DNA of 64,000 nucleotides from a virus (lineage: Duplodnaviria > Caudoviricetes). Shown here in pieces: positions 2,340 to 47,167 of this stretch (its first letter is position 1; every line of letters starts with the position of its first letter). Location of the stretch: positions 154,437 through 218,436 of IMG/VR virus record IMGVR_UViG_3300034161_000008. One strand, 5' to 3'. A program made the position numbers and the translations under genes. The notes beneath the pieces are model-generated. The model did no database searches. It had not been told where the DNA came from and was given only the letters and a program-made list of their open reading frames with translations.

Positions 2340-3257
2340 ATGCCTATTTTCAACAAGCCCTCGGCTGATTTGGTATACGACCTCATCAACCAGGCTAACC
2401 CACAGTTGGTGAAACCGGCAACGACCGTCAACACCAAGCTAGGGGTTCCTGCTGTTATTGCTACACCGGGCTTGAACAAGCTCAACACCAGCATCGTTCT
2501 GGCTGCCGTACCGGGTGGAGATTACATCGGTCGCAAGACTGTAAACTATCGCCGCATCGATCTGGCTGCGCTGACCCGTGGTGTGACGATTGCAATCGAT
2601 CGTTATTCCGCTACTCAAGCCTCTGCGGGGACGGTGGTGTTTACCATCTACCAGCTGCTGCCATTCATCAACCAGCGCTACGGTCTGAACCTGACCACCG
2701 ACGACATCAACGACGGTAACATCCTGCGTGGGTCGACTCTGGTTAATGGTCAGTACACCACCACCGTGACCGTAACCGCGAAGCCTGGTAGTCTGGGCTA
2801 TATCGGTTCGTTCGCTCTGAAGTGGACGGGCGCTGCTCAGGACATCGGGTTGATGCTGGCTGTCTCTGAACTCCCGGCTCGCCAGTTCCCAGGCGGCAAC
2901 GACTTCAGCAACGGTCACACGGTGCTGAACGCCCTGACCTACGGCTACGACTGGACTACGATCTTCACGGCGAACCCGTGGTATCAGTACCCAGCCGGAA
3001 ACCCGAACGCAAACATTGCGGTCAACACTACCATGGGTGCGGTGTTCCAGTACATCAACTCCACGTACGGTACGAACTTTGCACCGTCCTTCCGTTTCGA
3101 CAACGAATACAACTTCGAAGTCCTGACGCTGCCGTCGGCTAAGTACCCAGAGCTCAACTCTGATTACTACAACCGTTGCCTGGTGTTCACACCAACCTCG
3201 GACACGGCCAAAGCGCAACTGGGTGCTGGCGTCATGCAGATGCACTACAACGTCTAA
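2340..3257 (+). CDS. Virion structural / tail-fibre-associated protein, family A
   Basis: 305 aa; VNYRRIDL, YGLNLTTDDI, AKPGSLGYIG, ends MHYNV. Confidence 0.7.
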   Translation: MPIFNKPSADLVYDLINQANPQLVKPATTVNTKLGVPAVIATPGLNKLNTSIVLAAVPGGDYIGRKTVNYRRIDLAALTRGVTIAIDRYSATQASAGTVVFTIYQLLPFINQRYGLNLTTDDINDGNILRGSTLVNGQYTTTVTVTAKPGSLGYIGSFALKWTGAAQDIGLMLAVSELPARQFPGGNDFSNGHTVLNALTYGYDWTTIFTANPWYQYPAGNPNANIAVNTTMGAVFQYINSTYGTNFAPSFRFDNEYNFEVLTLPSAKYPELNSDYYNRCLVFTPTSDTAKAQLGAGVMQMHYNV

Positions 3258-3267
3258 GGAGTGAGTC

Positions 3268-4146
3268 ATGTCTTATCAAGCGATTTCCCTTCCTGACTTG
3301 CTCGTCGAACTGAACAAAGCAAACGGCACTACGTTCACCACGAACGACGTTGCCTTTGCTAACCCTCAGGTTGTTGCAGGTACGTGGAAGGCTAAAACCA
3401 CACTCAAGAACACGGGTGTGGTCGTGACTGCCAAAGCTGGTAGCGCGTATCAAGGTCGTGCAAACATTCTGTACGATCGTCTGCCGTTGTCGGCACTGGA
3501 CCCGGCGAAGTTGAAGGGTTTCCAATTGGCTGCGTACCAACCAGCAAAGATCTACGACTTGTTGCCGTGGCTCAAATACTGGAACGGTTTGCAGCTGACC
3601 AGCGACGACATCAATGATGGCGATCTGGTAGACAACGGTGACGGCACTAAAACTGCTGTGATCTCTGCCAAGCCTGGATCGTACGGTTGGGTTGGGTCTG
3701 TATCGATTCTGGTCAAGCCAGGCGGTGCTTCACTCAACAACGTGTTGACGGCTCCTGATCTGATGGGTCTGAACTACCCAACAGCTTCGGATACTGACAC
3801 GTACTCGCAGATCTACATGTACGGCTACGATTTCACCACGTACTTCAACGACATCGTTGGGTTGAACGTTGGTGCAATCCCTGCTGCTTCCATCACTAAG
3901 TTGGTGGCTGCGTTTACGGCAGTGGACGTTTCCAGCGGTAAAGCACTGTGGAACGAACAAGCCAGTTCGACTGCGTGGTCGTTGGCCGGAGCTACTGTGG
4001 TTTCCAACGGGCTGAACAACCCTGTGACGATGCCGACCAACCCGGCGTACAAATACGTTCTGGCAATCAATTTGCGCAGCGATGTGTTGACGCCTGCTGG
4101 TACGCTGTACCTGCACTACAACGATCCGTTCGATCCGAACGCCTAA
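3268..4146 (+). CDS. Virion structural / tail-fibre-associated protein, family A
   Basis: 292 aa; RBS AGGAG; LYDRLPL, GLQLTSDDI, AKPGSYGWVG, ends LHYNDPFDPNA. Confidence 0.7.
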   Translation: MSYQAISLPDLLVELNKANGTTFTTNDVAFANPQVVAGTWKAKTTLKNTGVVVTAKAGSAYQGRANILYDRLPLSALDPAKLKGFQLAAYQPAKIYDLLPWLKYWNGLQLTSDDINDGDLVDNGDGTKTAVISAKPGSYGWVGSVSILVKPGGASLNNVLTAPDLMGLNYPTASDTDTYSQIYMYGYDFTTYFNDIVGLNVGAIPAASITKLVAAFTAVDVSSGKALWNEQASSTAWSLAGATVVSNGLNNPVTMPTNPAYKYVLAINLRSDVLTPAGTLYLHYNDPFDPNA

Positions 4147-13274: not shown

Positions 13275-13300
13275 AAAAAAAAAAAGAGTGGGGACTCTTT
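13275..13300 (-). terminator. Intrinsic terminator
   Basis: Minus strand AAAGAGT-CCCC-ACTCTTT running into T11, downstream of the 13325 ORF. Confidence 0.7.
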
Positions 13301-34030: not shown

Positions 34031-34343
34031 AGATGTTCCTTAAGAAGTTTTTCCAGAGAGTTGAAATATCGAGTCTTGGGTTTTAGGTCTAAAAGGGTGT
34101 TTTAGCACCTCCCTCTTTTACCCCACCCCCCTTGTTGGCCGGGACCCAAAACAGGCTTTGACAACCTATGAGTTTTTTTCAGAAAAAGGTCTTTATCGCC
34201 CCACTAAGCAAAAGCTCTTGACTTATGCCCGCCCGTGCTTCGCGTCAGCATTAGGCCCCATTAAGAAACTGTTTAGAAAAAAACCCTTAAAAGCGTAGGG
34301 GAGCACGCTCCCCATCGCATTCGCTACAGTAGACAGTGCCCCC

Positions 34344-44077: not shown

Positions 44078-44671
44078 ATGACTCGCATGAGCGCCAATCG
44101 TTTCGAACGTAAGATCCGCGAAAAGAAAGCCCAAGAGGCACTCAAGAGCAACACCTGCTGGGACGATCTTAACCAGATCTCCGGTGCTGCTAACGAACTG
44201 ATGCAGCGTCACCTCGTGATTGCCGGGATGATGCGCAACAAAGAACTGTGCGCGTTCTTGGTGGATGCCAAGTCCGTAGCATCCAACGGCAAGCTGTTGG
44301 CCAAAGACATCACCACTCTGGCGCACGAACTGGCTGCGTTGCAATCTCTGCACGTTGAGAAAAGCGGCGGCACCGATGACCCGGACGTCGTGATGCACAC
44401 CATCAGCATCTACGAACAGTACCAGCTGTTCCTGGAGCGTCACGAAGCTGTCGTGATGCCAACCATCGGCGCACTGCTGGAACAATTCCACATCGCCGAA
44501 GAACGCCTGAACGTCGCCTACAAGGCCGGTCTGGAACAAGCTGCCGAAATGGCTGCTGACCAAGAAGCCGGTATCGAAGAAGGCGTCTTCACCGAAGTCG
44601 TTGAACCTGCTCGTGGCCAAACCGCCGAGCTGGTACACATCGACGAAAGCCCACTTCAGGAAGTCAAGTAA
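44078..44671 (+). CDS. Conserved hypothetical protein
   Basis: 197 aa; RBS AAGGA; TAATG overlap with the next gene. Confidence 0.65.
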   Translation: MTRMSANRFERKIREKKAQEALKSNTCWDDLNQISGAANELMQRHLVIAGMMRNKELCAFLVDAKSVASNGKLLAKDITTLAHELAALQSLHVEKSGGTDDPDVVMHTISIYEQYQLFLERHEAVVMPTIGALLEQFHIAEERLNVAYKAGLEQAAEMAADQEAGIEEGVFTEVVEPARGQTAELVHIDESPLQEVK

Positions 44672-46266
44672 TGACCGATGAAAAGAATCCTATCGACAGC
44701 GAAGCCAATGACCTGTCGCCGGAACCAGTTGCCCCTGCTGCCACACCCTCCGGTATCGTCGACGACGAAGACGCCGGTCAGCTCTACCTTGACGAGCCTG
44801 ACGACGAGCCGCAGGGCGTTCCTGTCCCAGCACCTAAAGCAGCAGACGAAGAAGAGGCTCCTAAACCTCCTCGACCTGATGCTCTGAACGTCAAGCAACA
44901 GCACGAAGTTTACCGTGCGATCCTGCCGACTGATGACGTTGACGAACTGATCATGTTGCCTGCGGGCACCAACGACGAAATCAACGTTGCTCTGGCCGCC
45001 ACGCCAAACGTGCGCCTGGACGACACCGAACAAACTCGTGAATGGGCATTCGTGTTGAACGAAGGCACCAAGATCACGCAGATCGGTTCGGCGTTCGAAG
45101 CGTCGGTACGTCGTGAAGATTCGATGTGGGTTCAAGAAATCCCATCTGAACTCGGTGTGCTGGCTGGTGCTGCTCCACAGTTCAAAGACAAACCGGGCGT
45201 GTTGCTGACTGGTGAGCGCGCTGTGTTGCGTCTGCGTCACCTGACTGGCCAAGGTTCGGTTTACCAAGTGCCGCTGTGGCACTCTGGTTTCTGGGTCACG
45301 TTCAAAGCGCCGTCCGACGGGGCGATCCTCGAACTGCAACGTCGCATCATGCAGGAAAAGATCGACCTCGGTCGTCACGTCCACGGCCTGGCTTTCTCCA
45401 ACCACTCGGTGTATACCGCTGGCTGGATGACCGACTTTGCCCTGAACCACATCTACGACACCAACATCAAGGACATCGCTCCTGAGCAGTTGCGTGAACT
45501 GATCGTGTCTCTGGACTTGCCGTCCGTGTTCTGGGGCATCGCCTGCGTCCAATGGCCGAACGGCTTCAAGTACGCTCAGGCGTGTGCGAACGATCCGTCC
45601 AAGTGCCAAGAAGTGGTGCGTGAGCTGATCGACGTCACCAAGCTTCAGTGGTGCGACCAACGCGTGCTGACTCCTTGGCAGGTTTCGCACATGGCCTCCC
45701 GTAACAAGAAGGTCACGCTGGATCAGATCGAGAAATACCGTTCCGAGTTCGTGGTCGGTAAACCTCGCGTCGTTGAATTGGCTCCAGGCGTTAAAGCAAC
45801 GCTGAAGGTGCCTACTGTTGCTGATTACCTGACCTCCGGTAACAAGTGGGTCGGTGCAATCGTACAGATGATCGACAAGGCATTCTCGCTGTCTCCTGAA
45901 GACGGCCAGCGTAACCAGTTCATTACCGAGCAAGGTCAAGCTTCGACCATGCGTCAGTTCGGTCACTGGTTGCAAGAACTGGAACTGCCGGGCGATCAGA
46001 AGATCACCGATCAGGAAACTCTCGAGATGTCGCTGGACTCCCTGTCCGGTAAAGAGAAGATCGTTGATAACTTCCTCAACGCCGTTGGCAAGTTCATGGA
46101 CGAAGCAACTTCGTGCGTGATTGCGATCCCAACCCACGACTGCCCGAAGTGCGGCCACAAGCGCGGTTCCAACCTGCCTCGCTACCCGCACCTGTTGCCG
46201 CTTGATGTGATGGCAACTTTTTTTATCCTTCTCGGGCAGAAGGCAACGTCAATCCGCAATCGTTAG
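44671..46266 (+). CDS. Conserved core protein, putative tail/baseplate assembly chaperone, short form
   Basis: 531 aa; acidic disordered N-terminus; LKVPT and CPKCG motifs reminiscent of T4 gp26-type chaperones; slippery heptamer 13 codons before the stop. Confidence 0.55.
   Translation: MTDEKNPIDSEANDLSPEPVAPAATPSGIVDDEDAGQLYLDEPDDEPQGVPVPAPKAADEEEAPKPPRPDALNVKQQHEVYRAILPTDDVDELIMLPAGTNDEINVALAATPNVRLDDTEQTREWAFVLNEGTKITQIGSAFEASVRREDSMWVQEIPSELGVLAGAAPQFKDKPGVLLTGERAVLRLRHLTGQGSVYQVPLWHSGFWVTFKAPSDGAILELQRRIMQEKIDLGRHVHGLAFSNHSVYTAGWMTDFALNHIYDTNIKDIAPEQLRELIVSLDLPSVFWGIACVQWPNGFKYAQACANDPSKCQEVVRELIDVTKLQWCDQRVLTPWQVSHMASRNKKVTLDQIEKYRSEFVVGKPRVVELAPGVKATLKVPTVADYLTSGNKWVGAIVQMIDKAFSLSPEDGQRNQFITEQGQASTMRQFGHWLQELELPGDQKITDQETLEMSLDSLSGKEKIVDNFLNAVGKFMDEATSCVIAIPTHDCPKCGHKRGSNLPRYPHLLPLDVMATFFILLGQKATSIRNR
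46218..46224 (+). promoter_or_regulatory. Putative -1 programmed ribosomal frameshift site T TTT TTT
   Basis: ACT TTT TTT ATC is in X XXY YYZ phase; the -1 frame is open 46206-46724; hairpin CCTTCT-CGGGC-AGAAGG at 46227-46243. Confidence 0.7.
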
Positions 46267-46724
46267 AACGTGGCAGGCAGCAGGTCCACTTGACTGCTTC
46301 CGGCTTCGGTGAAGGGATGGTTCGCCATAACTACATTAACGAGCTGATTGAGAAGGCTCCGCCAGTGGTGTCAACCGACGCCCAGCTTATGTTGCTCGAT
46401 GCCTACGAAACAACGTTTGGCATCGAGAACCATGAACAACCGCAGAAGGCTCGTCCTTTATTGTTGGTTGCTCAACAGTGGTCAGAAGACACTGGCAAAG
46501 GGAGCCATCTGTTCGAGCGGCAACAGCAATACTACGATTGTGGGATTCTCAAGTTCTTTGGGATACCTTACGACCGTTGGCTGGAACAGCCTACTGAAAT
46601 TGTTGAGGAGCAGATGCGCCGAGGCAAGGTCTGGGGTACGGCTGAGAATGCTCAGGCTGAAGCTTTAAAGCTCAGGCTTGAAGCACTGAAGAACGGTAAC
46701 GGCCAAGGCAAACTGGGGGTATAG
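46224..46724 (+). CDS. -1 frame extension of the upstream protein (fusion ~684 aa)
   Basis: Open from the slip site (YPSRAEG...); the called start is a TTG with no clear RBS; FFGIPYDRWLEQP resembles the C-terminal part of G/GT or gp51-type chaperones. Confidence 0.6.
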   Translation, partial: YPSRAEGNVNPQSLERGRQQVHLTASGFGEGMVRHNYINELIEKAPPVVSTDAQLMLLDAYETTFGIENHEQPQKARPLLLVAQQWSEDTGKGSHLFERQQQYYDCGILKFFGIPYDRWLEQPTEIVEEQMRRGKVWGTAENAQAEALKLRLEALKNGNGQGKLGV

Positions 46725-47167
46725 TGACGATCGTATTCGAAGGTGATGGTGACTTGTTCACCTCGAGTTGTGAGACACTAGTTTGTCCTGTCAATACCGT
46801 GGGTACTTTGGGGAACGGGTTAGCTGCTGCTTTTAAGTGGCGCTTTCCCGGTTTGCTGGAGGCGTATAAGGGAGCGTGTCAACGCAGTGTCTTCTCCGGA
46901 CGGGGGTTGTATTTGTGGGAATACCTGCCCGACAGGAAGATCTTATGTCTACCAACAAAAAGGCACTTCGCTAATCCTTCCAAGTTAATCTGGATCGAGA
47001 AGGCCTTAGAGATCCTGGCGGAAGACTGGGAAGAGCTTGGCATAACCTCACTGGGTATACCGATGATTGGCTGCGGAAAGGGGCAGTTAATGTGGGCCGA
47101 TGTGAGACCATTGATTTGGCAATACCTCGATCCCATTGACTTAGAGGTCAGCATCTTCCTGAAATAA
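46724..47167 (+). CDS. Macro domain protein (DarG/Appr-1''-p processing type)
   Basis: GDLF, CPVNTVGTLGNGLAAAFK, LPTK, IPMIGCGKGQL.W..V. Confidence 0.85.
   Translation: MTIVFEGDGDLFTSSCETLVCPVNTVGTLGNGLAAAFKWRFPGLLEAYKGACQRSVFSGRGLYLWEYLPDRKILCLPTKRHFANPSKLIWIEKALEILAEDWEELGITSLGIPMIGCGKGQLMWADVRPLIWQYLDPIDLEVSIFLK

Follow-up and report, generated by a model that had tools for sequence, protein, structure and literature searches.

The DNA analysed here, called the window throughout, is a stretch of 64,000 nucleotides (nt) from an uncultivated virus of the Caudoviricetes (IMG/VR record IMGVR_UViG_3300034161_000008, positions 154,437 to 218,436), and it belongs to a genome of 218,436 bp with terminal repeats. 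On its plus strand lie two overlapping open reading frames (ORFs) that, judging from their relatives, are very probably joined by a programmed -1 recoding event. The first, ORF1 (44671-46266; ATG at 44671, stop codon TAG at 46264-46266), encodes a protein of 531 amino acids (aa) and is the ortholog of phiKZ gp77, PhiPA3 gp074, 201phi2-1 gp136 and EL gp47. It matches phrog_4585, a family of unknown function, and has no Pfam or NCBIfam match; megablast, too, returned no phage record that matches the region. The second ORF, in the -1 frame, is of the same family as PhiPA3 gp073 and 201phi2-1 gp135 (phrog_12109). The gp77 family occurs in every phiKZ-like (nucleus-forming) jumbo phage that we examined, as well as in some relatives outside the well-known hosts.

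Codons 516-518 of ORF1 read ACT TTT TTT, and the seven T's (46218-46224, plus strand) stand in the X_XXY_YYZ phase of a slippery site, T_TTT_TTT, at which we propose that the -1 shift takes place. After a TGA stop at 46203-46205, the -1 frame stays open from 46206 to TAG at 46722-46724. Between that TGA and the ORF1 stop there is an overlap zone (46206-46266, plus strand) in which the zero and -1 frames are both open. A slip at the second TTT would give ...VMATFF/YPSR..., and the -1-frame extension (46224-46724, plus strand) would contribute 166 aa before its stop, for a product predicted from the sequence to have 518 + 166 = 684 aa. In this long product the 13-aa zero-frame tail of the short one, ILLGQKATSIRNR (46225-46263, plus strand), would be replaced. 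The tryptic peptides predicted at the window junction are YPHLLPLDVMATFFYPSR for the long form and YPHLLPLDVMATFFILLGQK for the short form. A preliminary description of this DNA had drawn attention to the T heptamer, its phase, the open -1 frame and the stops around it, all of which are indeed present, and its product sizes of 531 and ~684 aa agree with those that we obtain. It had also remarked that the downstream ORF has only weak starts: the sole -1-frame start candidates in the window are TTG at 46290 and ATG at 46317, and neither is preceded by a Shine-Dalgarno (SD)-like sequence.

Conservation and integrity of the proposed slip site

We compared the window with 27 GenBank phages, 8 metagenome relatives (22-69% identity) and 49 IMG/VR loci, a few phages being present in two of these collections. 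The GenBank set includes PA_ZH1 (phiKZ-like), PhiPA3, 201phi2-1, RAY, SPN3US and PCH45, together with phages of Ralstonia, Burkholderia, Xanthomonas and Vibrio, Bacillus phage AgentSmith and Halocynthia phage JM-2012. One GenBank phage, RTH11, is treated apart as the single exception among 85 related loci in all. Counts given below refer either to the other 84 loci (the window and 83 relatives) or to a set of 35 made up of the window, 26 GenBank phages and the 8 metagenome relatives.

All 84 loci carry a run of five to eight T's on the aligned Phe-Phe (or Phe-Leu, Leu-Phe, Val-Phe) codons, most often seven (T5 in 6 loci, T6 in 13, T7 in 53 and T8 in 12). Likewise, in 84 of 84 the downstream ORF lies in the -1 frame and this frame is open across the run. 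The canonical heptamer T_TTT_TTN is found in phase in 72 of the 84, and every locus has an in-frame TTN codon with TTT as its -1 triplet. The slippery run and the -1 overlap, which the preliminary description had singled out as features to be followed through orthologs, are thus kept throughout the family. The linker past the run varies between 12 and 32 aa and the overlap of the two frames between 55 and 259 nt (first 35 loci), yet the frame relation is -1 at every one of the 84 loci. In several of them the -1 frame opens just 0-12 nt ahead of the run, so that the shift can hardly be located anywhere but on the run.

Both continuations past the run are conserved as protein. The zero-frame tail is maintained in relatives as FF[TI]LLxQ[KR]. 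The extension, measured from the run, has 149-192 aa, against 68-182 aa for the downstream genes as annotated. Its profile phrog_12109 is matched by 33 of 35 extensions, and all 49 IMG/VR extensions match a profile built from the other 35 (E-values of 1e-11 to 1e-51). At the codon level, TTT is the minority choice for Phe, accounting for 15% of the Phe codons elsewhere in the window gene and for 32% (266/843) over the 35 orthologs. The slip site nevertheless has a TTT codon in all 35 loci tabulated (log10 P about -20, a value that treats the loci as independent, which is defensible, if not strictly correct, for synonymous sites in proteins that are 22-69% identical).

The exceptional phage, RTH11 (OQ790161.1; locus L012, positions 3813-3819), shows T7 at this place, against T8 in its sister phage LucasX. 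Its annotated ORF1 of 627 aa ends in 68 codons of a non-homologous frame, and the extension is found at +1 rather than -1. Even so, both the usual tail frame and that of the extension are intact and remain one base apart. Judging from these frames, the deposited sequence probably contains a homopolymer miscount.

Miscounts of this kind are common, and one could suppose that the window, too, contains either a sequencing error, the locus being in reality one continuous 684-aa gene, or a decaying, broken gene. We checked the window against contigs from four sequencing runs, belonging to four different studies, that cover positions 45700-46750. The four contigs differ from one another and have 97-98.6% identity with the window, but there is not a single indel in this interval, and the part around the run (46180-46273) is free of substitutions in all four. 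T7 is thus seen in four independent assemblies, with no sign of the different run length that the preliminary description had allowed for, and the run is no assembly artefact. Moreover, the 84 loci, which come from many laboratories and metagenomes, share the two-frame layout, and in relatives the zero-frame tail past the run is itself kept as protein. Nor did we find a single-frame fused homolog, either among 51 homologs of ORF1 (up to 930 aa) or in the best 150 of 850 extension matches. We regard an error or a decaying gene as scarcely credible. Only three T runs of at least seven occur in the 64-kb window, the slip site being one of them; the further long homopolymers in the window are A11 at 13275, T7 at 34173 and 48835, and A7 at 34277 and 47801.

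The same gene pair and T run are carried by AgentSmith (locus L013), a 200-kb Bacillus phage, and by JM-2012 (locus L025), a 167-kb marine phage. The gp77 frameshift feature may extend beyond the nucleus-forming family.

The downstream frame and its starts

All 27 GenBank records annotate ORF1 and the downstream ORF as separate genes, and some -1-frame start codon exists in most loci. Taken at face value, these annotations describe two independent genes. In the window the second would be translated from TTG 46290 or ATG 46317, or by coupling to termination of ORF1, and the T run would merely encode Phe-Phe. The position of the start, however, is not conserved and falls inside the conserved domain. 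The extension has two recognizable motifs, PH[VI]xxxxFG, which lies 12-32 residues past the run, and AY[ED]xxYGI, ~40 residues further on. In 29 of the 35 loci tabulated, annotation begins the gene only past the first of them, and only a handful of the candidate starts in these loci have an SD-like sequence. In four phages (PA_ZH1, AH06, RAY and AgentSmith) there is no ATG, GTG or TTG at all from the run to the second motif, a distance of ~55 codons. Annotation copes with the missing start in various ways, as illustrated by gp266 of Erwinia phage RAY (locus L014, positions 2556-3104), whose annotated start lies in the -1 frame 80 nt upstream of the T run, inside gp267.

Coupled initiation meets a further obstacle. 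In PCH45, FBKp24 and Moabite, ORF1 runs 37-44 codons past the run and overlaps the conserved extension; therefore, reinitiation after the ORF1 stop cannot yield the domain. Two independent genes would also have no reason to keep the -1 relation in 84 of 84 loci across a variable linker and overlap, to leave the -1 frame always open back to the run, or to fix the minority codon TTT at the site.

A wider survey gave the same picture. Searching 1.84 billion proteins with the extension profile returned 850 cluster representatives, of which the best 150 were inspected. These 150 proteins are 97-180 aa long, their called N-termini are scattered from profile position -30 to +59, and in 116 of them the called start comes after the first motif. 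Such scatter is the pattern that gene callers produce on an ORF without a real start.

Differences between strains also bear on which frame is under selection. In the downstream ORF, 14 of the 15 differences listed fall at third positions of the -1 frame, and the only one located ahead of TTG 46290 is silent in this frame, affecting a Gly codon. As this pattern of substitutions indicates, purifying selection acts on the extension as read in the -1 frame.

Two independent genes therefore appear very improbable on the evidence of starts, frames and codons set out above. To judge from the comparison, the downstream 'gene' is not separate but is the C-terminal part of a long isoform. The preliminary description had proposed a programmed -1 event that joins the two ORFs, and this idea is borne out by the conservation across 84 loci and by the start-less downstream ORF. 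The comparative evidence is very strong, and a conserved programmed -1 recoding event very probably joins ORF1 and the extension.

None of the 27 GenBank records annotates a frameshift, and a full-text literature search, within the limits of the searchable collection, found no description of one in gp77; the statement in the preliminary description that it was unreported for phiKZ-like phages accords with this. The presumed gene numbers of the PCH45 orthologs are absent from a phage transposon-sequencing (Tn-seq) preprint. Recoding at this site would correct the annotation of a core gene, whose extension is now listed as a small gene with starts chosen almost at random, and would give this much-studied phage family one more protein, of 684 aa.

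Ribosome or RNA polymerase

In the scheme that we favor, most ribosomes would read ORF1 to its stop and produce the 531-aa protein, which ends in a short conserved helix. A fraction of them would slip back by one base on T_TTT_TTT, with tRNA-Phe re-pairing on TTT, and would then read the -1 frame to 46724 to make the 684-aa protein. In this long form the last 13 residues would give way to a variable linker followed by a conserved domain of ~145 aa that is mostly helical. The presumptive parts of the scheme are the ribosome, rather than RNA polymerase, as the agent and the ratio of the two products. We place the probability of ribosomal -1 frameshifting at roughly 0.7.

The competing mechanism is transcriptional slippage, in which the phage multisubunit RNA polymerase or that of the host would add one U and so give rise to an identical 684-aa protein. 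A pure homopolymer is the classic substrate of polymerase slippage, and the run in gp77 genes is often lengthened at its 5' side to T8 by NTT codons. Bacterial polymerases slip on homopolymer runs of about 8-9 or more, which is what the known bacterial examples need, but six of our loci have T5 and thirteen have T6. Some viral polymerases, on the other hand, slip on runs of 6-7 (Ebola GP and potyvirus P3N-PIPO). Still, T5 is short for polymerase slippage yet enough for re-pairing of tRNA-Phe, and the ribosome is favored for this reason. The second codon tells a similar story: in 22 of the 84 loci it is kept as TTC, although TTT would lengthen the run. Neither the T5 runs nor the TTC codons are decisive, but as sequence features both favor the ribosome.

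Several observations weigh against a ribosomal slip, or against the -1 event as such. Sites of -1 frameshifting usually, though not obligatorily, have a stimulatory element, either a structure 5-9 nt downstream or an SD-like sequence upstream. No downstream structure is conserved in the gp77 loci, where minimum free energy z-scores of the 70 nt past the run scatter around zero. An upstream SD-like element is likewise absent, the mean energy being -3.1 kcal against a background of -3.3 kcal. Without a stimulator, the efficiency of the slip may be low, or the polymerase may slip instead. In addition, 12 of the 84 loci lack the canonical X position and have G_TTT_TTT, G_TTT_TTC, A_TTT_TTC or NTT_TTT_A in place of T_TTT_TTN. 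Constraint on the zero-frame protein could partly explain the conserved Phe pair. Finally, the transframe protein is a predicted product, the evidence for it being wholly comparative.

The preliminary description had noted a hairpin just past the run. A stem of 6 bp (CCUUCU / AGAAGG; 46227-46243, plus strand) does exist there, but a role as a stimulator is not supported, as it begins only 2 nt from the run and is not conserved, being absent even from the closest relatives of the window. It is probably a by-product of the Leu-Leu-Gly-Gln-Lys codons.

Since neither a conserved hairpin nor an SD-like stimulator was detected, the ribosomal slip is favored only, and slippage by a polymerase is still a candidate, if a clearly less probable one. 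In one variant, the phage's own non-canonical RNA polymerase may slip inside the phage nucleus. The locus also offers a natural test of whether RNA polymerases of the phiKZ type slip on short T runs.

Possible function, known counterparts and neighborhood

The AlphaFold2 (AF2) model of ORF1 has a mean predicted local distance difference test score (pLDDT) of 83 and a predicted template modeling score (pTM) of 0.80. The slip site lies inside the last predicted helix (residues 513-530), so that the long isoform would lose that helix. Among viral models in BFVD, the orthologs are followed by ~20 models of ~250 aa named baseplate hub subunit, hub assembly protein or chaperone (E-values of 2e-4 to 1e-2, template modeling (TM) score normalized by target of 0.5-0.57, both sides being predicted models). 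An ESM Atlas cluster in which 14% of the members have the PF12322 domain aligns with ORF1 at a TM score of 0.46, again with predicted models on both sides. A feature-based search of the ESM Atlas returned only unnamed viral clusters; a P2 GpE family cluster at rank 92 (score 0.84) is below the useful threshold and was not taken as evidence.

Sequence profiles point in the same direction. PF12322 (T4_baseplate) is weakly matched by 4 of 49 relatives (best E-value 0.0057), and phrog_150 ('baseplate hub') by 11 of 49 (best 2.8e-6). In an hhalign comparison, the IAIP..CPKCG segment of ORF1 aligns with the C-terminal LAVP.KCPECG of T4 gp26 over 28 columns with a probability of 46%, while with T4 gp51 the CPKC motif alone aligns. 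Both of these T4 proteins are listed as chaperones of hub assembly, and the particle does not contain gp51 (PMC3004832). Taken together, the profiles and predicted models make it plausible that ORF1 is a large, distant relative of the gp26/gp51 family of hub-assembly chaperones.

Other results count against this functional assignment, which rests on weak similarity. The ORF1 model has no significant Foldseek match in PDB, and a VIA-align wide search retrieved only helical hairpins (Z of 5-6). Neither the ORF1 nor the extension profile has a match among PDB sequences. The window ORF1 itself is below the family threshold and does not match PF12322. Searching the window's own genome with PF12322 and phrog_150 gave zero candidates, though the controls gave no signal either. 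Moreover, the gene lies outside any tail module, with a virion RNA polymerase subunit gene to one side and a helicase gene to the other.

For the extension, no relative was detected outside its four PHROGs (phrog_12109, 7580, 13274 and 34704), all of unknown function, and hhalign found no relation to T4 gp26 or gp51. Its AF2 model, built from a shallow alignment of 10 rows, has a pLDDT of 54 and is mostly helical with a long C-terminal helix; it is too poor for a fold search. The pair resembling T4 gp26 and gp51 that the preliminary description had suggested is therefore upheld in one half only. A remote likeness is present in ORF1 (the BFVD models, the PF12322 and phrog_150 matches of relatives and the CPxCG motif that aligns with gp26), but the extension shows a likeness to neither protein, and the notion of a pair is not supported.

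ORF1 differs from T4 gp26/gp51 (PF12322, phrog_150) also in being 2-2.5 times longer and in having an extension without a counterpart there. T4 gene 26 likewise gives two products, but by internal initiation, not frameshifting. In T4, the product of gene 26' (genes 26 and 26', locus L036, positions 2303-2929) is internally initiated and has a common C-terminus with gp26.

The obvious comparison is with the gpG and gpGT proteins of phage lambda, whose -1 frameshift is reportedly conserved among tail chaperones (P2 E/E+E', Mu, HK97). As in lambda, the putative slip in gp77 goes back by one base and is located close to the 3' end of an assembly gene, its products would have a common N-terminal body, the second ORF has no start of its own, and the arrangement is kept throughout the lineage despite sequence divergence. 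A chaperone role, too, would be common to both, as implied here by the likeness to the T4 family. In contrast, sequence or fold homology between the lambda-type proteins and the gp77 family is not supported. For the ORF1 model, Foldseek lists the HK97 chaperone (2ob9_A) with an E-value of only 1.4 and a probability of 0.23, and the VIA-align wide search retrieved nothing of this fold. The products of the gp77 family are ~five times larger (531 and 684 aa), the slippery sequence here is a T run, and the genes beside it are those of virion RNA polymerase and helicase, not of the tail tube and tape measure. The 'G/GT-like' label of the preliminary description thus holds as an analogy (two products, a common N-terminus and a -1 shift), whereas it does not extend to synteny or location by the tape measure, and homology is not supported.

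If the analogy has functional meaning, the two isoforms would act in assembly of the tail or the baseplate hub much as lambda G and GT do, with a common chaperone body and an added domain on a minority of the molecules. We suggest, with considerable reserve, that the long isoform might be the functional counterpart of lambda gpGT for contractile tails of the T4/phiKZ type, the domain added by the frameshift recruiting a tail or hub component. Should this be true, a lineage believed to be without the conserved tail-assembly frameshift would turn out to have one, encoded outside the tail module and in a protein that is not homologous. Recoding in gp77 also suggests that assembly chaperones with two isoforms occur more widely than the lambda-type G/GT family. 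Mutants making the short or the long form only would offer a handle on this uncharacterised assembly factor.

In mechanism, the nearest counterpart is gene 10A/10B of phage T7, which is said to undergo a -1 frameshift at G_GUU_UUC. In both systems tRNA-Phe would leave UUY for UUU close to the end of a late gene of structural type, a short C-terminus is swapped for a longer one, and pairing in the P site after the slip is imperfect, here in the G_TTT_TTY and A_TTT_TTC variants. T7 10B differs in being a capsid protein with an extension of 53 aa, whereas in gp77 a conserved domain of ~165 aa would be added to a non-capsid protein. E. coli dnaX (tau/gamma) and OrfAB of insertion sequence (IS) elements are further parallels, with bacterial-type tandem slippage on a homopolymer-rich heptamer and two isoforms at a set ratio. 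Unlike the gp77 site, where none are detectable, they have clear stimulators in the form of an upstream SD-like sequence and a downstream stem-loop.

The neighbors of ORF1 correspond to the gp75-gp80 block of phiKZ and comprise gp78-like and gp79-like genes, a gene for a virion RNA polymerase beta-subunit, a macrodomain gene and a helicase gene. The preliminary description had placed ORF1 far from any tape-measure gene, which fits these surroundings. In the record of 201phi2-1, a mark of detection by virion mass spectrometry is attached to gp138 but to neither gp136 nor gp135, a hint that the two products may be missing from virions. The ATG of ORF1 overlaps the stop of the upstream gp78-like gene (TAATG). 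At the other end, the GTG start of the macrodomain gene (46724-47167; phrog_335) overlaps the stop of the extension (TAGTG), and its translation may be coupled to frame-shifted ribosomes or to ribosomes that arrive otherwise. The macrodomain gene is found in closer relatives only, and PF01661 is matched in loci L028-L033.

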